Source of the DNA: a virus
Length of the DNA: 57,714 bases
Virus record (IMG/VR): IMGVR_UViG_3300000295_000011
Direction: 5' to 3' (one strand)
This document shows positions 27,454 through 46,589 of the stretch, one piece after another (position 1 is the first letter of the stretch; each line of letters starts with the position of its first letter). The notes under the pieces are model-generated. The model was not told where the DNA came from and did not search any database. It was given only the letters and a program-made list of their open reading frames with translations. The translations under genes were made by a program, and so were the position numbers.

Positions 27454-27821
27454 TGGCTCACACGAACTACACGCCTCAGCTCACCGCGTCCGCCTGTTTC
27501 ACGTTCGACGGCAACGGGAACCTGAAGATGCTCGAGGGCACGGCGGCGACACTGCAGAACGTCTCGAACGAATGCAGGTGCTTTACCGATGACCTGTACT
27601 TCTACGCGGAGCATGGCATCGACTGGTTCTCCGATCAGTTGGGCAAGCCCGTGCAGAAGGCCGTGACCGCCGCCCGCCTGAGGGATGCGGCCTTGTCGGT
27701 CGAGGGCGTGGAGGCCGTGGAGGCCGTGGAGATTGACGACGTGGACAGTCGCGCCCGCACACTGACGGGGCGCATCACCATCCGAACAACTGAGGGCGAT
27801 CATGGCCGTAGTGAAATTTGA
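27453..27821 (+). CDS. baseplate wedge protein (gpW/gp25-like)
   Basis: 122 aa, immediately before the J-like gene. Confidence 0.45.
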   Translation: MAHTNYTPQLTASACFTFDGNGNLKMLEGTAATLQNVSNECRCFTDDLYFYAEHGIDWFSDQLGKPVQKAVTAARLRDAALSVEGVEAVEAVEIDDVDSRARTLTGRITIRTTEGDHGRSEI

Positions 27822-29010
27822 TGAACTGACGGGCGTGGTTGTGCCCGACTCCTCCGAGATTCGCGAGGACTTCGCAAAGGGCATCGTGAAGGCGTTCCGC
27901 TCCGATCCCGACCGTCCCGACGTGAACGTTGAACCGACCTCCCCGATGGGGCAAGTGGTCGACCTGGTCGCTGCGGAGATCGAGGCGAAGAATGCCGAGA
28001 TCGCATACCTTGCCAATCAGCTCAACCCCCAGACTGCTCGTGGTGTCTTCCTCGACGCCATTGGCGGCCTCTACGGCATCGACCGCAAGCTCTCAGAGCC
28101 TTCCGTGGTTACCTGCACTCTGACAGGCCTGAAGGGCACTGTGATCCCTTATGGCGCGATTGTGCAGGACACCAACGGGAATAACTTCAGGCACTCCGCT
28201 GTTGGCGGTGCTGTGATCGGGGACGATGGGACGGTCACCACGACTTTCGATTCGGTCGAGCACGGCTCGGTCGAGGTCGCACCTGAGACGGTGACGAAGA
28301 TCGTCACGATCGTCGCAGGGTGGGATGCCGTCACGAATCCCGACTCGGGCGCTCTCGGACGCAGCAGGGAACCTGACAGCGAGTACCTCGCGCGCATCAC
28401 GGAGAGCTACGCGATCAATGCTCTGGGTAGCTTGGAGGCCATTCAGGCGAATCTGGCAGAGCTTGACGGCGTGCTTGACTGCGTGGTGCTAGAGAACTTC
28501 ACGAACGAGTACAAGACGGAATTCGGCCTGCGCATCGAGCCGCACAGCATCGCGGTCTGCATCGTGGGCGGGGATGATGAGGCAATCGCCGAGACCATCT
28601 ACCGACGAAAGGACATGGGGTGCGGCACGACGGGCAGTTACTCGGTCACGTACATCGCAAAGGATCACTTCAACGCGACGTACACGTACCGCATCACCCG
28701 TCCGAGCACACAGGACTTCAAGGTGCGCGTGACGTTTAACGCCGAGTCCGTGAACCCGTATGAGGAAGCGGACGTAAAGGCGGCCTTGATTGCGGACTTC
28801 TCGGGCGAAGGCTCGAACCCGCGCATCAAACTGGCTACGAAGGTCTACGCGTCCCGCTTCTACGGCGTGGCGATCCCCAAGACTACGGCTCCCGTGCGCA
28901 AGATCGAGATTCAGCTCGGCGATGCAGGGTGGGTTGACTCCGTGGAGATCCCCGCCAACGTCGAGCCTTCGATTTCCTCGGAGAACATCGTCTTCGTGTA
29001 CGAGAGGTAA
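27802..29010 (+). CDS. baseplate J-like protein
   Basis: 402 aa, by position and general resemblance. Confidence 0.65.
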   Translation: MAVVKFDELTGVVVPDSSEIREDFAKGIVKAFRSDPDRPDVNVEPTSPMGQVVDLVAAEIEAKNAEIAYLANQLNPQTARGVFLDAIGGLYGIDRKLSEPSVVTCTLTGLKGTVIPYGAIVQDTNGNNFRHSAVGGAVIGDDGTVTTTFDSVEHGSVEVAPETVTKIVTIVAGWDAVTNPDSGALGRSREPDSEYLARITESYAINALGSLEAIQANLAELDGVLDCVVLENFTNEYKTEFGLRIEPHSIAVCIVGGDDEAIAETIYRRKDMGCGTTGSYSVTYIAKDHFNATYTYRITRPSTQDFKVRVTFNAESVNPYEEADVKAALIADFSGEGSNPRIKLATKVYASRFYGVAIPKTTAPVRKIEIQLGDAGWVDSVEIPANVEPSISSENIVFVYER

Positions 29011-29013
29011 GGC

Positions 29014-29649
29014 ATGGCGGACACACAGACATGGTTCAACTTCGCATCCGTTGAGGACGTGCGGGGCATCCCCGATGTCGCCTCCACGCAGTCAGAAGCT
29101 ATCCAGACGCAGTACGCCTTCAGTGCGGACTTTCAGAATCTGGGAAGCCTGATGCAGGATGTGATCGACGCCACGCACGACCTCGAGCGCCTGCACGCGG
29201 CGGCGATGGATCCCCAGACCGCCTACGGCGTTTACCTCGACTGGTGGGGGCAGAAAGTCGGCGTAGACCGCTTCATCAAGGTGCGCGGCGAGTACGTGCG
29301 CTTTGATGATGACTACTTTCGCTTCCTGATCCTCTACCGCGCCGCTTGCAACATCTCGAACGGCTCGGCGGACGCCGCGAACAAGCTGCTACAGCGCCTG
29401 ACGGACACCACGGTTTTCGTCGTGGACTATCTCGACATGAGCGTGAACAGCATCGTCATCATCGGGAACATTTCCGACCTGCAGGCAATGATTTTGCAGA
29501 CCTACGGCCTATTGAATCGACCAGCGGGCGTTCTGACCAATCTTCTCGTCATCTATCCCGACGAGCAGATTTTCGGCTTTGAGGGGTCGACCCTCATGCC
29601 TTTCGACGTCGGCGTTTTCAATCCCGGCAGAACAATTGAGATTGATTGA
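29014..29649 (+). CDS. baseplate/fibre-attachment protein (DUF2612 / gpI-like)
   Basis: 211 aa, between the J-like gene and the first fibre gene. Confidence 0.5.
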   Translation: MADTQTWFNFASVEDVRGIPDVASTQSEAIQTQYAFSADFQNLGSLMQDVIDATHDLERLHAAAMDPQTAYGVYLDWWGQKVGVDRFIKVRGEYVRFDDDYFRFLILYRAACNISNGSADAANKLLQRLTDTTVFVVDYLDMSVNSIVIIGNISDLQAMILQTYGLLNRPAGVLTNLLVIYPDEQIFGFEGSTLMPFDVGVFNPGRTIEID

Positions 29650-30707
29650 TGAGCAACTATCCCGAACACCTGTTGACCTCGGCACTGGCCGCCGAGGGCG
29701 ACAAAACGATTCCGCCCGCAACCTCGCAGGAGGCGGGCACTGGCCGCTTTTCGCAGAACAAGGGGTGGACGGAAGTCAACTCCATGCCGCTCGCAGAGGG
29801 CGGCATCCCGCCGAAGCGTCAAGACTTCAACGGTGCGTTCTACCTGCTATCCCAGCTTCTGCTTTGGTATCAGCAGGGCGGCGTGATGAACTATTCCGTC
29901 GACCTCGACTATGAGGTCGGTAATGAGGTCATGCTCAACGGAACTAAGTATCGCTGTCTTCGCGAGAATGGCCCGGGCACGTCGCTTGTCACGCCTGGGT
30001 CGAGCAAGGCCGTTTGGAAAAATTTGGACGCACCAAGCGTTATAGCAGGTCAGATCACGCCTTTTGCGAATTGCCGTCTTGGTGGCAGCGACGGACGTCG
30101 CTTGATTCCGTGGGGCGAGACAGCGGCCGACGAGCGATATGTGTTGTGTGACGGTGGCTCCGACGGCCTCGGAGGTACTGTTCCAGACTTGATTGGGAAG
30201 TTTATTCTCCCGAGCACCGTAGGCGAGTCTGGACAGGTTGGTGGCAAGCTGACCGCAGGGACGGATGACAAAAAGATTGCGGGGACGGTTGGCGAAACGA
30301 TTCTGACCGTTGACCAGATCCCCAGTCACTCGCACACCGGCAAGGCTGCGGCGGTGTCCGGGCATACGCACTCGCGCGGCACGATGAACATCACGGGCTC
30401 CTTCCCCGTCGATGATCACAAGCAGCGTTATGTGACCGGCAGCTTCTACGCAGGCGAATGGGACTGTTGGGATAGCGACAACCGAGACTCTGAAAACACG
30501 TCGGTGCGGTGTCAGTTCGACGCCGCGCGCACTTGGACGGGGCGCACGTCTACGGATGGCGCTCACTCACACGACGTCACCCTCGAGTCCGTCGGCGGCA
30601 ATCAGGGACACACGCACACGCTTGACGGCGCGTCACATTCGCACACGGTCAAACTTCCGCTGCCGCCGTTCTTCAAACTGGCTTTCTTTGTAAAGCTACC
30701 TGAATAA
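29646..30707 (+). CDS. tail fibre protein with collar-like segment and HxH repeats
   Basis: Segment LCDGGSDGLGGTVPDLIGKFILPS. Repeats HSHTG, GHTHS, AHSHD, GHTHT, SHSHT. Contains MNITGSFP, which resembles the cassette entry motif. Confidence 0.7.
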   Translation: MMSNYPEHLLTSALAAEGDKTIPPATSQEAGTGRFSQNKGWTEVNSMPLAEGGIPPKRQDFNGAFYLLSQLLLWYQQGGVMNYSVDLDYEVGNEVMLNGTKYRCLRENGPGTSLVTPGSSKAVWKNLDAPSVIAGQITPFANCRLGGSDGRRLIPWGETAADERYVLCDGGSDGLGGTVPDLIGKFILPSTVGESGQVGGKLTAGTDDKKIAGTVGETILTVDQIPSHSHTGKAAAVSGHTHSRGTMNITGSFPVDDHKQRYVTGSFYAGEWDCWDSDNRDSENTSVRCQFDAARTWTGRTSTDGAHSHDVTLESVGGNQGHTHTLDGASHSHTVKLPLPPFFKLAFFVKLPE

Positions 30708-30716
30708 GAGGGCGAA

Positions 30717-31808
30717 ATGGCAGAAAAATTTTTATTCCATTACGTCTATACGGCGGTCGGGACGCTTTCGGGGCAGAGCTTCATCACGCAGACGGAAGAT
30801 GCGATTAACGATCTCGCTCGTTATGCGTCCGAAGGCAACGCAGATGCTACCGAGGCTCTTCGTCTGGCGAAGATCGCGAACGACAACTCAGAGACCGCTC
30901 TGAACAACTCGTCTCAAGCGGTCTCAACGGCGAACTCAGCGCTCTCTCAAGTCAAGACGCTGACGACAACGGTTGAGTCGTGGAACAAGCGCATCCAGAC
31001 GGCTGAGTCCAATGCGGCGACCGCCGTCTCGACAGCCAACGCAGCGAAGTCGAGTGCGGAGTCGGCAGTGACGACCGCAAATTCTGCTCTTGCCATTGCA
31101 GGTGAGGCGAAACAAAACTCGAGCGATGCGCTTGCCATTGCGCAGCAGGCGGACAAGAACTCTACGTTCGCTGTGAGCAAGGCAACCGATGCTGCTGCGA
31201 CCGCTGACGAAGCGAAGAAGCTGGCTCAGCAGGCGGTCATCGATGCAGAGTCTACTCTCGTCGAAATGGAGGGACTCCTCGCCACCACGACGGCCAAGGC
31301 CACGGAGGCCGCCTCGTCCGCGCAAGACGCCTCCTCGAGCGCGCTGCAGGCTCAAAACTCCTCGTTGCTCGCCGAAAAGTGGGCGAGCTGGATGAGCAAT
31401 TCTGCGGCCGAGGGACAGCCCGAGGACTTTACGGTCGACGGCACTGAATACTCGTCGAAGTGGTATGCGACCAAGGCCTCCGAAAGCGCAAGCGTGGCTT
31501 CTGATGCCTCAACGTCTGCTACGGCTGCCGCTGACTCTGCGGGCGCAAGCGCAACGGGTGCGCAGCAGTCGATGCAGACCGCTCAGCAGGCGGCGGCAGG
31601 GGCGAGTGCGTCCGCGCAGGCGGCAGAAGGATCAGCTGTTCGCGCAGAAGATGCCGCGAAGCGAGCTGAAGATGCGGCCTCAAGAAACGTCAATGCACTG
31701 ACCTATGACGCGCAGACACCGACCCCTGAGCAGCAGGCACGGGCGAGAGCAAACATCGGCATCTTGAGCGACGCCGAAATTGATGGGCTTTTTGCTGATC
31801 AGAGTTAA
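30717..31808 (+). CDS. tail fibre protein (Ala/Ser-rich coiled-coil shaft)
   Basis: 363 aa of repetitive A/S/T/Q coiled-coil-like sequence. Confidence 0.65.
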   Translation: MAEKFLFHYVYTAVGTLSGQSFITQTEDAINDLARYASEGNADATEALRLAKIANDNSETALNNSSQAVSTANSALSQVKTLTTTVESWNKRIQTAESNAATAVSTANAAKSSAESAVTTANSALAIAGEAKQNSSDALAIAQQADKNSTFAVSKATDAAATADEAKKLAQQAVIDAESTLVEMEGLLATTTAKATEAASSAQDASSSALQAQNSSLLAEKWASWMSNSAAEGQPEDFTVDGTEYSSKWYATKASESASVASDASTSATAAADSAGASATGAQQSMQTAQQAAAGASASAQAAEGSAVRAEDAAKRAEDAASRNVNALTYDAQTPTPEQQARARANIGILSDAEIDGLFADQS

Positions 31809-31823
31809 CAAGGAGGCATTCAT

Positions 31824-32051
31824 GTGAGTGTGATTCGACCCGCGCTTTCTTCCAGTGAGCGCACTACCGAGAGAAGGGCTGTGACGGTTATCCGACGCAG
31901 CCCTTCTTTTTTACGGCCGCAGACGATCGTCGAGGGGCTCCCGCAGGAGACCCCGACCGATCCGTATCTGCCGGTCGACTGGAAAACAGGAGATGTGATT
32001 ACGGCTGCAAGGCTGAACGCCACCGATGAAGGCGTCGACAAAAAACGCTGA
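31824..32051 (+). CDS. possible small fibre-associated protein or remnant
   Basis: GTG start after AAGGAGG. Only the C-terminal half (DWKTGDVITAARLNATDEGV) looks protein-like. Confidence 0.3.
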   Translation: MSVIRPALSSSERTTERRAVTVIRRSPSFLRPQTIVEGLPQETPTDPYLPVDWKTGDVITAARLNATDEGVDKKR

Positions 32052-32138
32052 CGCCATCGAGCGGCTTAAGGCTCAGCAGCCCACGAAAATCCCCACAACT
32101 TTTATTGACAACCTCTTTTAAATAAGGAATTTTTTATC

Positions 32139-32978
32139 ATGGCTACTCAGTTTCTCGACCTCGCTGGCTTGACCTACTATGACGGCAAGCTGAAGGAAAA
32201 GGCCGCTGGCTCCATCAAAATCGAAGGTCTGAACGTCTCGCTTACGTCGATCTCTGGTGCGGTACTCGGCACGATCGCGATCCCGCAGCAAGAAATCGAA
32301 CTCGCCTCTGGTTCGAAGAATGGCCTTATGAGCAAGGAACACTTCACCAAGCTCGAAGGTATCGCCGCCGGTGCAACGCTGGTCGAAGAAAGCGAAACTA
32401 ACGGCAATGTCAAGATCAATGGCAAGGAAACGACGGTTTACACGCCTGAGGTCTACACCCCTCACGAAAATGGCCTCTACAAGGTGACGGTCACCGACAA
32501 GGGTGCTGTGAGCGTCGCCACGCCGGTCACGAAGAGTGACATCACCGGTCTCGGCATTCCGGCTCAGGACACGACCTATGCGCCTGCATCTGGCGAAAAG
32601 GATGGCCTGATGTCGGCTGCTCACTTCACCAAGCTTGAAGGCGTTGAAGCCAAGGCTCAGGTGAACGTGATCGAGAAGGTGTCTGTCAACGGCTCTGCGC
32701 TCCCGATCAACAGCAAGGGTGTGAACATTGACCTCACGCCGTATGCCCTCAGGACCGACATCACGAATGTCTACAAGTTCAAGGGCTCTGTCGAGAACTT
32801 CGAGGCTCTGCCGAAGGACGACGTGACGGCTGGTGACGTGTATGACGTTAAGGCCGCTCATGGCGACAATCCCGCCGGCACGAACTTTGCCTGGACGGGC
32901 ACGGAATGGGATCCGCTCGGCGGTGCTTTCCACGTCGACGCTATCGCTACCAGCGCTATCGACGCTCTCTTCGCTTAA
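32139..32978 (+). CDS. tail fibre protein (GLMS..HFTKLEG repeat type)
   Basis: Repeat NGLMSKEHFTKLEGI / DGLMSAAHFTKLEGV. The N-terminus MATQFLDLAGLTYY is shared with the next fibre gene. Confidence 0.7.
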   Translation: MATQFLDLAGLTYYDGKLKEKAAGSIKIEGLNVSLTSISGAVLGTIAIPQQEIELASGSKNGLMSKEHFTKLEGIAAGATLVEESETNGNVKINGKETTVYTPEVYTPHENGLYKVTVTDKGAVSVATPVTKSDITGLGIPAQDTTYAPASGEKDGLMSAAHFTKLEGVEAKAQVNVIEKVSVNGSALPINSKGVNIDLTPYALRTDITNVYKFKGSVENFEALPKDDVTAGDVYDVKAAHGDNPAGTNFAWTGTEWDPLGGAFHVDAIATSAIDALFA

Positions 32979-33001
32979 TCGATGACCAACTGAGGTGAAA
33001 A

Positions 33002-33616
33002 ATGGCCGGTTTTCTTGATCTAACCGGCCTCTCGCGCTTCAAATCGAAGTTGCTTGAGGCCATTGCAAACGTTTATGTCACCAAGACAGCACATTCGAAG
33101 GCGCTTAACCTCAAGGTCAACAAGGCCGACCTTGAATCTGAAATCAAGCGAGTCCTTGGAACTCTAGACACGGGCATCCCGGTTGGCGCGATCATGGCCT
33201 TCCACGATGTGCCTGCGGGATGGCTTCAGTGCAACGGGGCGGCGGTGAGTCGAACGACTTACGCCGCTCTTTTTGCAAAGATCGGCACAAAGTACGGCTC
33301 GGGTAACGGCTCGACGACGTTCAACCTCCCGAACCTTCACCATAAGTTCATCGAGGGCACGACCACTTCTTCAGAGGTTGGTAAGTCTGTGTCGGCTGGG
33401 TTACCGAACATCAGCGGACGACTCGGCGCATACGACTGTGACGACTCCAAATTCTCAGGGCCATTTCAATATGTAGGCCATGAAGGCGGCGTCTCAACTG
33501 CATGGAGGAGCGTTCCGTACGCGAATTTTGACGCCTCGCGTGCATCGTCAAAATACGGCTCTTCGTCAACCGTCCAACCAGAGTCCATCCGCCTGATCCC
33601 TTGTATCAAATCTTGA
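33002..33616 (+). CDS. tail-collar-domain fibre / receptor-binding protein with exchangeable C-terminal tip (cassette A expressed)
   Basis: Collar-type segment PVGAIMAFHDVPAGWLQCNGAAVSRTTYAALFAKIGTKYGSGNGSTTFNLPNL. Crossover site CCGAACATCAGCGG at 33404-33417. Confidence 0.85.
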   Translation: MAGFLDLTGLSRFKSKLLEAIANVYVTKTAHSKALNLKVNKADLESEIKRVLGTLDTGIPVGAIMAFHDVPAGWLQCNGAAVSRTTYAALFAKIGTKYGSGNGSTTFNLPNLHHKFIEGTTTSSEVGKSVSAGLPNISGRLGAYDCDDSKFSGPFQYVGHEGGVSTAWRSVPYANFDASRASSKYGSSSTVQPESIRLIPCIKS

Positions 33617-33821
33617 TGCAAAGGATGAGCCTCAGTGCCGAAGGCTGTACCGTTGATGCAGAACCGTAGGTGCTGTCAGACTTGGCCGCAGAAAAGGAAA
33701 ACTTTCGGAATTGAATCTGGCCCGGGTTAAAGTATGCCTTGCTGCCCGTGGACGAGGAAAAGGCACCGGTGCCCTCCTCGCCGTGGTCACCACCACCAGG
33801 CAAAGCGCCCGTTATGTTCGG
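33606..33821 (-). other. silent fibre-tip cassette B (71 aa)
   Basis: PNITGALPGGGDHGEEGTGAF...STVQPSALRLILCIKI*. Stop-free, with no plausible independent start. Confidence 0.8.
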
Positions 33822-33826
33822 ACGCA

Positions 33827-34048
33827 CCGAACATCACAGGTGAATTCCCAAACAATGACAACGAATATGAAAAGTATTATTCAGGCGCATTTTCTATCGG
33901 ATCTGTAAGGCTTTCTGGCTATTCAGACGGAAATGGCTCTACCGGGCAGACTGGATTGTTCCGGGCTTCCAGGTCATCATCAACTTACGGATCCAGTACG
34001 ACTGTCCAACCCTCATCTGTTCGCTCGCTTTTCTGCATTAAATCTTGA
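33827..34048 (+). other. silent fibre-tip cassette C (73 aa)
   Basis: PNITGEFPNNDNEYEKYYSGAF...TTVQPSSVRSLFCIKS*. Confidence 0.8.
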
Positions 34049-34241
34049 TGCAGAAAAACGACCGGACGGCGGCAGGCTGCACGGTCGAAGAGCTGCTGTA
34101 AATCGCGCTTGAGCGAGATGCCGAAAAGTCAGCCGTGTTGCTCCCCCAGAGCTGCCCCTCTGAACAATTCCCGTCGCCGGTCTTTTTGAAGGCACCGGTT
34201 CCTGACAGCCATGACGCAGCGAGGGTTCCACTGATGTTCGG
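34038..34241 (-). other. silent fibre-tip cassette D (67 aa)
   Basis: Hand-translated: PNISGTLAASWLSGTGAFKKTGDGNCSEGQLWGSNTADFSASRSSAIYSSSSTVQPAAVRSFFCIKI*. It has no start codon, so it is absent from the ORF track. Confidence 0.75.
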
Positions 34242-34246
34242 TGCGT

Positions 34247-34456
34247 CCGAACATAACAGGTAGCTTCTTTGGACGATACGGCGGCTATTACAGCGGAGCG
34301 TTCACAGCCAACAGCTCATATAAAAGCGATGCGTGGGCCGGGACGGATCCAAACCCAACCTCAGATTTCCGAGCGTCTCGAAGCTCGTCTGTGTACGGAG
34401 CGGCGTCGACCGTCCAGCCGGCTTCAACCCGTATGCTCTTGTGCATCAAGACTTGA
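34247..34456 (+). other. silent fibre-tip cassette E (69 aa)
   Basis: PNITGSFFGRYGGYYSGAF...STVQPASTRMLLCIKT*. Confidence 0.8.
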
Positions 34457-34661
34457 TGCACAGGATAAGCCTGAGAGAAGCAGGCTGTACTGTTTGCGTC
34501 GCACCATACGTGCTATCTGAGTCTGATGCGTCGAAATAGAACAAGTGTCCGCCGTTGTTATCTTTGTTTGGGCAGTCTACAATTTTGCCAACTCGAAAGG
34601 CACCATTTTGTGTGCCGACGGGAACGTAAGCAGACGCCACAAATTCTCCTGTGATGTTCGG
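34446..34661 (-). other. silent fibre-tip cassette F (71 aa)
   Basis: PNITGEFVASAYVPVGTQNGAF...QTVQPASLRLILCIKS*. Confidence 0.8.
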
Positions 34662-34666
34662 TGCGT

Positions 34667-34870
34667 CCGAACATAACGGGTGCAGTCACTGCGTCATGGG
34701 TAAGAGGCACTGGAGCCTTCAAAGATGCCGAAAATGGTAATTGCCCAGGCGGAAACCTCAATGGGCCCGCCAAAATAGACTTTTCGGCATCTCGCTCAAG
34801 CGACTTGTATGGCTCGTCTTCAACTGTGCAGCCCGCTTCAATTCGTCTCGTTCACTGTGTTAAGTTTTAA
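34667..34870 (+). other. silent fibre-tip cassette G (67 aa)
   Basis: PNITGAVTASWVRGTGAFKDAENGNC...STVQPASIRLVHCVKF*. Related to cassette D. Confidence 0.8.
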
Positions 34871-35108
34871 TGCAATGAACGAGACGGACAGACGAGGGTT
34901 GGACGGTCGACGTGCCATATGTGCTACTGGAACGTGAGGCATCAAAGCGCAGACAACCGCCTTTGTCATTATTGATGATACTGTAATAAGACACAGCCGA
35001 TGCAGCGGTTGTTCTTGTCTTGCTGTAAATCGCTCCAGAGACATATTTATTTACTGCGGTGACATCAGCGGCACGCAAGGTGTCATAACCGACACCTGTG
35101 ATGTTCGG
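34860..35108 (-). other. silent fibre-tip cassette H (82 aa)
   Basis: PNITGVGYDTLRAADVTAVNKYV...STVQPSSVRLVHCIKT*. Confidence 0.8.
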
Positions 35109-35113
35109 ACCGT

Positions 35114-35329
35114 CCGAACATCACAGGACAAGTCAACCTATGTGGGGCTTGGGGTGGCGTCTCGAACGCCGGCGCTCTATCGACGCGCGGTTCTACCGGA
35201 GCGCCGACTGGCGGAGCACAGAACGGCGTAAATGTCTACTTTGATGCTTCGGCTTCAAGAAGCACATATGGATCGTCCAGTACAGTGCAGCCGTCATCTA
35301 TCAGAGGACTCTTCTGCATCAAGATTTGA
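35114..35329 (+). other. silent fibre-tip cassette I (71 aa)
   Basis: Hand-translated: PNITGQVNLCGAWGGVSNAGALSTRGSTGAPTGGAQNGVNVYFDASASRSTYGSSSTVQPSSIRGLFCIKI*. Not in the ORF track. Confidence 0.75.
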
Positions 35330-35549
35330 TGCAGTGAACGAGGCGAAGCGATGTCGGTTGAACAGTCGATGATGCGCCGTACTTCGCGTCGGAATTTGAT
35401 GCCGCAAGGGCAATGTCTGTAATGACGGATGAGCCAACGTTCGTCTTGCCGTTCCACGGCGTGGAGGACTTCCCACCAGAAAGTGCTCCACTGGCGGTGA
35501 AGTCATCGCAAGCTACGTTAAACGGCTTGATAGCGCCTGTTATGTTCGG
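35319..35549 (-). other. silent fibre-tip cassette J (76 aa); the only cassette with an in-frame upstream ATG (35564)
   Basis: (MQIRV)PNITGAIKPFNVACDDF...STVQPTSLRLVHCIKS*. Confidence 0.8.
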
Positions 35550-35641
35550 GACTCGGATTTGCATGTCATAGAGCGCTCTCTATGTCGTGCCGGGCACATG
35601 AGCGGGCTTCATCTGCAACTCGACGAAGCCCGCGCTGTTGG

Positions 35642-36781
35642 CTACTTCCAGTCGATCATGCCGGCACATTCGGCACACGCTCGAACGTGCTCACTCCAGC
35701 GCTCCATAACCGCCCTCCTGGCGTCGAAAAAGTCGGAGCGCTGATAGGCTCTGCTTACCTGCGTACCGACATCGTGGCTGAGACACATCTCCGCAACGTC
35801 GAAAGGGACAGCTTCGTCCGCAAGCCACGATCTTGCTATCGATCGCAGGCCGTGTGCAACGAGTCGTCCCTTGAGCGATGTACTGTGCAGGTGCTTCGCC
35901 AAGGCCTGCGAGCTAACGGGCTTGCCGGTGCTCTTGCCGGCAAAGACATGACCGCTTCGTGGCCTCGGGCTGAGCGTCTGCTCTCTGGCGATCAGCTCCT
36001 TCATGAAAGACGTGAGGGGCACGCGAAATGGCCGTCGCTTCTTCATGTGCTCAGCTGGTATGTGGATCGCGTCTTCTGTGATCCACGACTTCTCGAGCGA
36101 AGCATTCTCGCCTGGTCGAAGCATCGAGCAGAGCGAGAAGAGGAAGAGCACGCGCATGCGCTCCGGCGCTTCTTTCATAACCGCCATAACGGTGGGCAAC
36201 TCTCGCCAGTCGACAGACGGCATCGGCTTGACCTGCGGCGGTGCGAAGACCTTCGATACTCGTGCGAGAGGGTTGTGCTCGATGTAGCCGGCACAAACGG
36301 CGAGGTCAAGGATCTCGCGAAGGCGCATGAGTACGCGCTTGAGCGTCGCCTGCTTGCCGTCCTTTTCTATCGGCTGCACGGTTCGGATCACGAGCGGAGC
36401 CGTGATCTCGTCGAGCTGACGATTTCCGAGCGGTTCGATGATGTACCGCTCCAGGCGTCGGCGCTCGTCCTGATAGCTCACGATCTGGGGCTTTTTGAGG
36501 CGGCACCAAAGACGAAAAGCGTCTTTCAGTACATACCCTTTTGGCGGCTCGAGCCCGATGTCCTTTCTTAGGCGTCGGGCTTTTTGTCGTGCCTGCATCA
36601 GGCTCATGTCGGGATGTTCGCCGAGACGCTTGTCTGCGACACGGCCTGAGCACGACGTGCGAAAGTACCAGATTTTTCTGCCGGACGGCATGACTCGCAA
36701 CGTCAGGCCGTTCCCGTCGGCTACCGAATATCTCTTGTCCCGCGGCTTCATTGCCGCAATTTTTTTAGAGGAGAGCGTCAT
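35642..36781 (-). CDS. tyrosine recombinase (P4-integrase-like), candidate shufflon invertase
   Basis: 379 aa. N-terminal arm-binding-type domain (YSVADGNGLTLRVMPSGRKIWYFR). Catalytic signature LRPGE ... HGLRS ... AYQRSD. 78 nt from the end of ORF J (92 nt from site 35536-35549). Paralogous to int at 45402. Confidence 0.85.
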   Translation of the reverse strand: MTLSSKKIAAMKPRDKRYSVADGNGLTLRVMPSGRKIWYFRTSCSGRVADKRLGEHPDMSLMQARQKARRLRKDIGLEPPKGYVLKDAFRLWCRLKKPQIVSYQDERRRLERYIIEPLGNRQLDEITAPLVIRTVQPIEKDGKQATLKRVLMRLREILDLAVCAGYIEHNPLARVSKVFAPPQVKPMPSVDWRELPTVMAVMKEAPERMRVLFLFSLCSMLRPGENASLEKSWITEDAIHIPAEHMKKRRPFRVPLTSFMKELIAREQTLSPRPRSGHVFAGKSTGKPVSSQALAKHLHSTSLKGRLVAHGLRSIARSWLADEAVPFDVAEMCLSHDVGTQVSRAYQRSDFFDARRAVMERWSEHVRACAECAGMIDWK

Positions 36782-37363
36782 ATGACCTCAGACTTCAAAA
36801 AAGCATTTTGTTATGACGATGCTGGGTACTACCAGCACGAGGTTTCTGTCCAGGTTGTGGACGGAGAGCCTCTCATGCCGCCGTCGGTCACCTTTTCCTG
36901 TCCATGGGGAAAGGCGACGCAAGACGACACCGTCTTCTACCGCTTCGACGGGAAAAAGTGGATTGCTGAGAAGAAGCCGACGTGCGCAGCCGAGTGTGTC
37001 GGACTCGTGATCTCTCATACGACGACCACGCCGCATGACGAGGAAATGCGCGAATTGATCCGCAAGTTCTCTCAGGAAGAGGGCTATTGCGAAAAGCGCG
37101 GCGAGGACCTCTCGTGGTCCCTCGAGAAGATCCCTGAAAAGACTGAGGAAGAAAAACTGACTGAGGCGAGGCAGTCCGTTCGCTCGAAGCGCGATTCCCT
37201 GATCTCTGACACGGACTACCTGCTCTGCGCCGACTACCCGATCAGCGCCGAAGACCTCAAGGCCGTCAAGGCCTACCGTCAGGCGCTTCGCGATGTTCCG
37301 CAACAGGAGGGCTTCCCCTTCGAGGTGGTCTGGCCTGAACTGCCGACCATCCTCGCGGAATAA
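36782..37363 (+). CDS. tail fibre assembly protein (Tfa/gpG-like chaperone)
   Basis: C-terminal RDSLISDTDYLLCADYPISAEDLKAVKAYRQALRDVPQQEGFPFEVVWPELP is the typical Tfa signature. Confidence 0.75.
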   Translation: MTSDFKKAFCYDDAGYYQHEVSVQVVDGEPLMPPSVTFSCPWGKATQDDTVFYRFDGKKWIAEKKPTCAAECVGLVISHTTTTPHDEEMRELIRKFSQEEGYCEKRGEDLSWSLEKIPEKTEEEKLTEARQSVRSKRDSLISDTDYLLCADYPISAEDLKAVKAYRQALRDVPQQEGFPFEVVWPELPTILAE

Positions 37364-45128: not shown

Positions 45129-45388
45129 AAAATTGGGGCAAAAATTGGGGCAAAACCCAAGCTCCCTTCCAGAAGCCTTCTGCCACAACGAATCATGGCG
45201 GAGAAGGGGTCTGTCGAACCCCGTTAGACATCCCCTAGACATCCCCTAGACATCCCTTAGACATTTCCCCGTTGAGCCGTGGGTTTTCGCCCGTTTTCGG
45301 TTAGCATGATGGGACAGAGTTAGACATCTGTTAGACATCTTCTAGACATTTTCTAGACAGACAAAATTGGGGCAAAATTGGGGCAAAC
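45129..45388. promoter_or_regulatory. candidate attP: two phased arrays of 4x TAGACAT flanked by 2x AAATTGGGGCAAA on each side
   Basis: TAGACA starts at 45225, 45236, 45247, 45258 and at 45321, 45332, 45343, 45354, with exact 11-bp spacing. GGGGCAAA doublets lie at 45129-45156 and 45361-45388. The region abuts the int start codon. Confidence 0.6.
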
Positions 45389-45401: not shown

Positions 45402-46589
45402 ATGCAAGTCACCGCCAGAAACATCGGGAGCCTCCCAGTGGGGACTCACCGAGCAGAACGTTGCCTATATTTAAGAAAGCGAGAGGGTCACGCGCCGACG
45501 TGGGTCTTCCGCTACACGGTCTCGGGAAAGCAGAAGGACGTGGTGATCGGGACGGCGGACGCCGTGACGATTGCTCAGGCAAAGGAAACCGCCGCACGCT
45601 TTCGCACGATGATTGCCGACGGGGTCGACCCGCTTGCCGCGAAGCAGGAGCGGCGGGAGAGGATGAAGAACGCGGGCGCGGAGGTTGACCGCCCGTTCAC
45701 CTTCGCCGACCTCGTTGCCGAGGCCCTGCCCGTCATCGTGCAGAGCAAGGCGTGGCGAAATCAGAAACACGCTGCACAATGGCAATCGACCCTCGAGCAG
45801 TACGCCCTCCCTGTACTGGGTAAGCTGTCGGTCGAGGACGTGAGCCGAGACGACATCCTTGAAGTACTCGTGCCGATTTGGAGAACGAAGCCGGAGACTG
45901 CTGGCAGATTGCGCGGCAGGCTTGAGGCCGTCTTCGCCTACGCCATAGTCATAGGAAAGCGAAGCGGAGGGAATCCCGCCCTGTGGCGCGGGAACCTTGA
46001 GATGTTCCTGCCGCCGATTGCCAAGGTGAAAAAGGAAAGTCACCACGAGGCGCTCACGTTCGACCAGGCTCGCGCGCTTTTCGATGAGTGGCGACCGCCC
46101 ACGTCGATCACGGCCTGCGCGATTCTGTTTGGGGCGCTGACCGCGTCCCGCGTCGGGGAATTCGTGCCCGCGAAGTGGGAGGAGATCGACCTGCACAGGG
46201 AGGTCTGGCACTGCCCGCCCGAGCGACGAAAGGACGGGAAGAAATACCCGCACCGCGTCCCGCTGTGCCGGCAGCTCGTTTCCATGCTGAAGATGCTCCC
46301 GCACGATTCCCCGTATGTGTTCGCCGGCAAAGGCGGCTCGCACATCTCGAAGGAGACGCCCCGCGTGGTTCTCCAGAAGAAGCTCGGGCACGGGACAATG
46401 CACGGCTTTCGCTCGACATTCCGTGACTGGTGCGCGGAGAACGGGAAGGACCCGATTGTTGCCGAGAAAAGCCTGATGCACGCTACTGGGAGTGCCGTGG
46501 TTCAGGCGTATCAACGCTCCGACCTCCTAGACGCTCGCAGGGTTCTGATGCAGGAATGGGCGGACGCCGTGTACCCGGAGCAGGTTTGA
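45402..46589 (+). CDS. int: integrase, P4-type tyrosine recombinase
   Basis: N-terminal arm-binding-type domain. Catalytic signature SRVGE ... HGFRSTFRDW ... AYQRSD. Adjacent to the repeat-rich attP and to xis. Confidence 0.9.
   Translation: MQVTARNIGSLPVGTHRAERCLYLRKREGHAPTWVFRYTVSGKQKDVVIGTADAVTIAQAKETAARFRTMIADGVDPLAAKQERRERMKNAGAEVDRPFTFADLVAEALPVIVQSKAWRNQKHAAQWQSTLEQYALPVLGKLSVEDVSRDDILEVLVPIWRTKPETAGRLRGRLEAVFAYAIVIGKRSGGNPALWRGNLEMFLPPIAKVKKESHHEALTFDQARALFDEWRPPTSITACAILFGALTASRVGEFVPAKWEEIDLHREVWHCPPERRKDGKKYPHRVPLCRQLVSMLKMLPHDSPYVFAGKGGSHISKETPRVVLQKKLGHGTMHGFRSTFRDWCAENGKDPIVAEKSLMHATGSAVVQAYQRSDLLDARRVLMQEWADAVYPEQV

Follow-up and report, generated by a model that had tools for sequence, protein, structure and literature searches.

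The 57,714-nt stretch of viral DNA from IMG/VR record IMGVR_UViG_3300000295_000011, the whole of which we call the window, contains a tail-fibre gene, an array of short repeated sites and a tyrosine recombinase gene. This region is very probably a shufflon of five segments and ten cassettes by which a tail-collar fibre protein exchanges its C-terminal tip, a judgement that covers the explanation below as a whole. An earlier note on the same DNA had described 33-bp palindromes where cassettes meet and had read them as complete recombinase core sites (arm, spacer, arm) like lox, FRT and dif. We conclude that each palindrome is two independent one-sided sites placed head-to-head, an ordinary by-product of the convergent-cassette layout and not a complete site of the lox/FRT type. 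Two other ideas of that note held up, namely that the sites are one-sided like the sfx sites of plasmid R64 and that the 8-bp block CCGAACAT is the strand-exchange region.

The pattern CCGAACATMASNGG matched the 57.7-kb window 10 times, with 0.27 matches expected, and 0 of 100 shuffles reached 10. Furthermore, the 8-mer CCGAACAT was present in the window only at these 10 sites (2.0 expected). The strands of the sites alternate along the array (+ - + - + - + - + -). Two sites stand alone: site 1, CCGAACATCAGCGG, at 33404-33417 on the plus strand, which lies inside the expressed gene and encodes P-N-I-S-G, and site 10, CCGAACATAACAGG, at 35536-35549 on the minus strand, at the recombinase-proximal end. 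The other eight form four inverted pairs, each with a minus-strand site, a 5-nt centre and a plus-strand site: junction 1 at 33808-33840 (sites 2 and 3, centre ACGCA), junction 2 at 34228-34260 (sites 4 and 5, TGCGT), junction 3 at 34648-34680 (sites 6 and 7, TGCGT) and junction 4 at 35095-35127 (sites 8 and 9, ACCGT), the arms of the last forming a perfect 16+1+16 palindrome. The centre of junction 1 is the reverse complement of centres 2 and 3. The letters quoted in the earlier note for the four junctions stand exactly at these positions. Its description of head-to-head cassettes forming four 14+5+14 palindromes was confirmed by sequence and pattern scan, the scan also left the same two sites unpaired, and the flipped first centre is as it had stated.

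Each of the 10 sites encodes P-N-I-[T/S]-G and opens an in-frame cassette of 67 to 82 codons, and all ten cassettes follow the pattern PNI[T/S]G...STVQP...C[IV]K-x-stop. The expressed tail-fibre gene, an open reading frame (ORF) at 33002-33616 on the plus strand (Pfam Collar, E 2.9e-21), consists of a constant part, site 1 and cassette 1. The silent cassettes on the minus strand are cassette 2 at 33606-33821 (PNITGALPGG...CIKI; ORF and site match), cassette 4 at 34038-34241 (PNISGTLAAS...CIKI; translation), cassette 6 at 34446-34661 (PNITGEFVAS...CIKS; ORF), cassette 8 at 34860-35108 (PNITGVGYDT...CIKT; sequence and ORF) and cassette 10 at 35319-35549 (PNITGAIKPF...CIKS; ORF). Those on the plus strand are cassette 3 at 33827-34048 (PNITGEFPNND...CIKS; ORF), cassette 5 at 34247-34456 (PNITGSFFGR...CIKT; ORF), cassette 7 at 34667-34870 (PNITGAVTAS...CVKF; ORF) and cassette 9 at 35114-35329 (PNITGQVNLC...CIKI; translation). 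The resulting layout is five invertible segments with two convergent cassettes in each. A shufflon has at least three alternating sites bounding invertible segments, and the window has ten; its cassettes are alternative 3' ends of one gene, read in frame through the site, and 10 of 10 are open here. Indeed, window cassettes were found joined to the constant part of the fibre in relatives: cassette 3 is fused to it in relative L029, and cassette 9 is the expressed one in L016, where cassette 6 lies at the recombinase-proximal end.

Cassettes recur in related phages at other positions, in other orientations and beside other neighbours. For 87 sites in 23 loci, upstream context and cassette were compared pairwise to give a linkage map. 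When the cassette was the same and the upstream sequence different (113 pairs), each position 5' of the site mismatched in 53-85 % of the pairs. Within the site, the mismatch was 0 % at positions 1-8, 22 % at position 9, 0 % at 10-11, 25 % at 12 and 0 % at 13-14, and beyond it approximately 0-9 %. When the upstream sequence was the same and the cassette different (125 pairs), the mismatch was at most 16 % upstream, 0 % at positions 1-8, 32 % at 9, 42 % at 11, 76 % at 12 and approximately 70 % beyond. The two profiles therefore bound the exchange interval by position 1 and approximately position 10: homology breaks exactly at the 5' edge of CCGAACAT, and the sequence from position 11 on travels with the cassette. 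Contig G001 is 99.1 % identical to window positions 27532-33413 (5.9 kb of tail genes), its homology ends at 33413, which is position 10 of site 1, and its cassette set is almost wholly different from that of the window. On the 5' side of the site no position reached 0.5 bit of information, as in asymmetric shufflon sites with one unconserved arm, and a search of the lone sites for dyad symmetry around CCGAACAT (a hidden second arm) found none. These comparisons support strand exchange inside CCGAACAT, a crossover in the conserved core that is indicated by comparison and not by a biochemical nick map.

In line with this, the core was uniform within each shufflon of the wider family. Our survey comprised 80 loci with recombinases 49-98 % identical and yielded 310 sites in 66 shufflons. 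Five cores were found, CCGAACAT in 39 loci, CCGAATAT in 15, CCTGACAT in 6, CCCAACAT in 3 and CCAAACAT in 3, and mixing of cores was seen in 0 of 66 shufflons. Four cassette families stand behind different cores in different shufflons. Core positions 3 and 6, which are synonymous codon positions, differ between shufflons but never within one; positions 9 and 12 (synonymous) and 11 (Thr versus Ser) vary within shufflons. A core that is uniform within and varied between shufflons is the signature of an exchange region needing identity of the partners. The clade with approximately 54 %-identical recombinases (L219, L221, L225 and L228) uses the core CCTGACAT and encodes P-D-I. Many cassettes of this clade are arranged head-to-tail, so that the upstream neighbour terminates at the TGA within the core (...ATCAAGGCCTGACATTACTGG).

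We propose that each cassette opens with one asymmetric site of the R64 sfx type. This site would consist of the block CCGAACAT, serving as the overlap region at the constant-side edge, followed by a weak cassette-side arm MASNGG, and it would have no conserved arm on the constant side. The partial conservation of MASNGG would be due in part to the coding constraint I-[T/S]-G. The adjacent tyrosine recombinase (35642-36781) would pair any two inverted sites and exchange strands inside CCGAACAT, inverting one or several segments with the P-N-I reading frame kept. A second monomer would bind the variable arm non-specifically, as described for Rci, the R64 enzyme. Catalysis by the product of 35642-36781, the exact nick positions and the non-specific binding of the second monomer are the parts of this scheme that we infer. 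Several points weigh against it. Position 9 is nearly unlinked to either side (22 % versus 32 % mismatch), which leaves the 3' boundary of exchange only loosely placed. All evidence for recombination is comparative, between metagenomic contigs, some of which (G001, L023) may themselves be chimeras that cross the shufflon. The search patterns and P-[N/D]-I-[T/S]-G coding account in part for the invariance of positions 1, 2, 5, 7, 8, 10, 13 and 14. Finally, the recombinase keeps an arm-binding domain, so that the Rci-like model of a non-specifically bound left arm may be incomplete.

If each 33-bp palindrome were one core of the lox/FRT/dif type, two monomers would bind its 14-nt arms and exchange strands across the 5-nt centre, and the lone sites would be degenerate half sites. 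All four internal junctions of the window are 14+5+14 inverted repeats, and arm-spacer-arm is the canonical layout for tyrosine recombinases. However, the centres do not behave as a spacer. Among relatives of the recombinase (21 loci fetched, later 80) and junction-bearing contigs also gathered by pattern, we counted 71 distinct junction contexts, with centres of 0 nt (3 junctions), 1 nt (21), 2 nt (9), 3 nt (7), 5 nt (26), 6 nt (1), 7 nt (3) and 9 nt (1). This range, found with near-identical enzymes, contrasts with the fixed 6-8 bp of lox, FRT and dif, and different lengths are mixed inside single arrays beside one recombinase gene (3, 5, 2, 5 and 5 nt in L012; 1, 3, 5, 1 and 3 nt in L034). 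A single core with 14-nt arms is excluded because no dimer could bridge such a spread of spacings. The 5-nt centre of the window, and still more a 1-nt centre, is shorter than the overlap seen in known tyrosine recombinases (6-8 bp), and we know of none with an overlap as short as 1-5 nt. Since the centres are too variable and too short, the palindrome must be two abutting sites. Furthermore, the centres do not match the letters that precede the lone expressed site, a necessary partner, so that no spacer is common to all partners; the breakpoints lie in CCGAACAT and not in the centre; exchange in the centre could never give an in-frame fusion of a cassette to the constant part; and in many relatives the array is a single segment bounded by two lone sites and lacks a palindrome altogether. 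A lox-like core is therefore very improbable, and this headline of the earlier note failed on the length of the centre, the lone-site partners and the position of the breakpoints.

Two back-to-back sites would arise wherever neighbouring segments, each with two convergent cassettes, meet head-to-head. The 5-nt centre would then be passenger DNA caught between two crossover points, and a multi-segment inversion spanning a junction would flip its centre, which would explain ACGCA versus TGCGT. The 5-nt centres ACGCA, ACCTA, ACCGT and GCAGA were found 5-8 times each, in both orientations and between unrelated cassettes, which fits passenger DNA locked between crossover points. The palindrome of such back-to-back sites might also have been co-opted, either as an RNA hairpin limiting read-through or translation into silent cassettes or as a cruciform or double-occupancy element biasing the choice of partner. 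Junction RNAs were predicted to fold at -18 to -27 kcal/mol, with z-scores of -2.8 to -7.4, and centres of 1 and 5 nt predominate (47 of 71). Two inverted 14-mers, however, inevitably give a strong hairpin, no T-tract follows any junction, the predominance of 1 and 5 nt is explicable by descent from a few junction modules recurring across loci, and the variable centres and single-segment shufflons mean that no such element is required. We therefore consider a second role of the palindrome unlikely. Two further candidates were rejected: the junctions as intrinsic terminators (no T-tail downstream of any of them), and position 9 as part of the junction module, since it flips with the ACGCA centre in the window but the linkage fails in other loci. 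Finally, an agent other than the adjacent recombinase could exchange the cassettes: homologous recombination or gene conversion between the short repeats, or a trans-acting recombinase, be it the phage integrase or one of the host. Exchange of partners at conserved 3' ends inside segments does occur in L016, probably by homologous recombination, and G001 carries its 12-site array without an adjacent recombinase. Yet RecA-type exchange needs more than 8-14 bp of identity, and the breakpoints are sharply placed. In 66 loci on different phage backbones, array and recombinase gene stay together at a constant spacing, the core differs by recombinase clade (CCTGACAT in the 54 % clade, for example), the catalytic residues are invariant, and the G001 contig may be a chimera, its left 3.6 kb being an unrelated tail module. 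Another agent of exchange is thus hardly credible, and inversion by the adjacent recombinase at one-sided sites is the explanation that we retain.

The recombinase gene (35642-36781, minus strand) encodes 379 amino acids (aa) with the Pfam domains Arm-DNA-bind_3, Phage_int_M and Phage_integrase and matches NCBIfam PRK09692. Its N-terminus matches the arm-type domain of a CP4-like integrase (structure 3jtz, E 5.9e-12), and the catalytic residues R222, K247, H310, R313, H336 and Y346 are invariant among 17 homologs. The domains, PRK09692, the catalytic residues and 3jtz together assign it to the P4/CP4-57-type arm-domain integrases. A second P4-type integrase of the phage, at 45402-46589 on the plus strand, is 27 % identical to the shufflon recombinase (E 8e-22). 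Eight TAGACAT arm-type repeats lie upstream of it at 45225-45359, and no att-like repeat field was found beside 35642-36781, unlike its paralog. At 45129-45388, directly upstream of the second gene, the repeats form two arrays of four bracketed by AAATTGGGGCAAA doublets, a motif unlike anything near the shufflon. The gene at 45402-46589 is likely the phage's own integrase and the TAGACAT field its attP arm region. The presence of this probable integrase with attP-like repeats provides context for the view that 35642-36781 does not encode an integration enzyme. A search for serine recombinases (PF00239) gave no match in 5 related phage records (control genomes were positive) or in 20 candidate ORFs of the window. 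Judged from its sequence, the shufflon enzyme is a paralog of the phage's P4/CP4-type integrase that has kept the arm-binding domain, and it is not a relative of Rci.

The motif TGTGCC is present on the minus strand at 35593-35598, 35663-35668 and 35672-35677. It recurs in the last recombinase codons (C369-A370, invariant in 17 homologs) and, within the non-coding spacer, approximately 48-70 nt ahead of the first site. Most of 18 diverse family members (L165-L219) show this pattern, with approximately 0.05 occurrences expected per spacer; in the window overall the motif is not enriched (26 versus 26 expected). We regard the TGTGCC copies close to the recombinase-proximal site as candidates for an operator or for an accessory or arm-type site. 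A sigma-54 -24 element (TGTGCC/GGCACA in the spacer) was rejected, since there is no TTGC at the right spacing. More tentatively, and with considerable doubt, we suggest an undescribed, widespread family of tail-fibre shufflons in which a heterobivalent paralog of P4/CP4-type integrases has turned into a dedicated multi-site invertase; its arm domain would read the conserved TGTGCC repeats next to the recombinase-proximal site and so restrict the enzyme to inversion. If true, this means of directionality would differ from the C-terminal domain of Rci and from Rin, the armless enzyme of Bifidobacterium prophages.

Between the last site and the recombinase stop (35550-35641), three palindromes follow each other, CATAGAG-AGCG-CTCTATG, GTGCC-C-GGCAC and GCGGGCTTCATC-N8-GACGAAGCCCGC (the last at 35602-35633); they may shield the recombinase gene from shufflon transcription. 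On the other side of the recombinase gene lie genes for a fibre assembly chaperone (36782-37363, plus strand; Pfam Phage_tail_APC, E 8.6e-23), a holin and a lysozyme. At 36779-36784, the start of the recombinase on the minus strand and that of the chaperone on the plus strand abut with zero intergenic bases (CAT directly followed by ATG). The promoter and ribosome-binding site of each gene must therefore sit inside the other, and late transcription towards the chaperone would run antisense through the recombinase gene.

The distance from the end of the recombinase match to the first site is exactly 96 nt in close relatives (82-98 % identical recombinase) and 112-135 nt in most of the more distant ones. 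The order of recombinase, approximately 100-130 nt, sites and Collar fibre gene is kept across different tail backbones; the sites mostly alternate in orientation, and the Collar fibre gene closes the array. The recombinase adjoins such shufflons in many gut phages. Their host is probably a member of the Sutterellaceae, because a 68 %-identical recombinase carries the name Sutterella wadsworthensis; a host search by scanning genome contigs gave no match. Comparison of L016:2905-3325 with window positions 34436-34661 and 35114-35351 revealed a single L016 segment in which cassettes 6 and 9 are joined at the tail-to-tail stop palindrome (TGCATCAAG.TTTGATGCA). The conserved 3' ends are therefore places where partners were swapped or segments lost, and homologous recombination is the presumed route. 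The G001 array (L153:1-6633; L002) has one cassette in common with the window and no adjacent invertase, only the integrase paralog. A second Collar gene (172 aa), which belongs to an unrelated baseplate module, leads into the array from the opposite side, and the left 3.6 kb lie next to a transposase-like fragment. Either the G001 contig was wrongly joined within the shufflon, or two genes share one pool of cassettes; we did not build on it as a genuine trans-acting system, since the unrelated left 3.6 kb make a chimeric assembly at least as likely. In L023:7169-8456, the recombinase-proximal flank (..caaatccgagtc) was found at both ends of a 6-site array. Faulty assembly is the probable cause, a reminder that contigs from metagenomes can be chimeric where they cross a shufflon.

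The junctions of R64 (NC_005014) are built in the same way. They read CCAGGTACCGGATTGGCAC-TGGCCTAC-GTGCCAATCCGGTCGGTGG, a 19+8+19 palindrome, and the centre of the second junction, GTAGGCCA, is the reverse complement of the first. The sfx sites themselves are asymmetric, with an experimentally defined 12-bp variable left arm, 7-bp core and 12-bp conserved right arm (bioRxiv 10.1101/2024.10.25.620183, citing Gyohda et al.). Since R64 has palindromes with a flipped centre despite asymmetric sites, the window junctions reproduce a known shufflon junction anatomy. The palindromes are thus ordinary, being the product of any shufflon with convergent cassette pairs, R64 included. The window shares with the R64/IncI shufflon (Rci, sfx, pilV tips) multiple segments, convergent C-terminal cassettes and alternating sites, one conserved block (crossover core plus one arm) that starts at the constant-side edge with the other arm unconserved, palindromic junctions with an asymmetric centre in both orientations (TGGCCTAC/GTAGGCCA in R64, ACGCA/TGCGT here), and a tyrosine recombinase gene at one end of the array. 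In contrast, the window enzyme is not a member of the Rci family (BLASTP E 0.13). Rci gives a PF00589 match only and has no arm-binding domain (PMC8138268), whereas the window enzyme combines Arm-DNA-bind_3, Phage_int_M and PF00589. The conserved block is 19 nt in R64 and 8 invariant plus 6 semi-conserved nt here, the length of the centre varies in the phage family, and the target is a phage tail fibre instead of a pilus adhesin.

Shufflons on phage receptor-binding genes have also been described. The Rin shufflon of Bifidobacterium prophages, published in 2018, uses the 11-bp rix site TTCCCTAACCC, and Rin lacks an arm-type N-terminal domain (PMC6109161). A tail-fibre shufflon of BV01-like Phocaeicola phages (2026) has an adjacent recombinase and the 10-bp motif TGGGAGAACT (PMC13596623). 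Like the present system, both are phage encoded, have a recombinase (tyrosine-type in Rin, adjacent in BV01) flanking distal receptor-binding or tail-fibre cassettes and use short asymmetric sites. The window enzyme differs from Rin in its arm-type N-terminal domain. Core sequence and host phylum differ from both systems, as does the arrangement of ten cassettes in five strictly convergent pairs, a separation that is based on the published descriptions. Tyrosine-recombinase shufflons on phage receptor-binding genes are thus already known, and the present system is a variant. Alternative tail-fibre C-termini produced by DNA inversion, with an assembly chaperone downstream, are likewise found with Gin, Cin, Pin and Min (Mu, P1, e14 and p15B). 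These systems rely on serine invertases that act at sites of 26 bp with a 2-bp crossover, together with an enhancer and Fis; by contrast, no Resolvase-family (PF00239) invertase was detected in the 20 candidate window ORFs or the 5 related records. The likeness to loxP, FRT and dif, inverted repeats around a short centre, is superficial. Their fixed spacer of 6-8 bp is itself the exchange region, whereas the centre here measures 0-9 nt, is not common to all partners and is not where exchange maps.

Our literature search found no paper on this phage family with its probable Sutterellaceae host or on any shufflon invertase with an arm domain. The shufflon invertases described here descend from arm-domain integrases and arose independently of Rci and, it appears, of Rin, an origin that prompts the question of what confines them to inversion. 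Natural variation provides a crossover map, with breakpoints at the 5' edge of an 8-bp core that is uniform within 66 shufflons and differs between them. The map predicts that a change in one site blocks recombination and that a matched change in both partners restores it. Synthetic shufflons currently rely on Rci homologs (10.1101/2024.10.25.620183), and those who build them may be interested in the present compact system, which offers ten alternatives and needs only a very short site.

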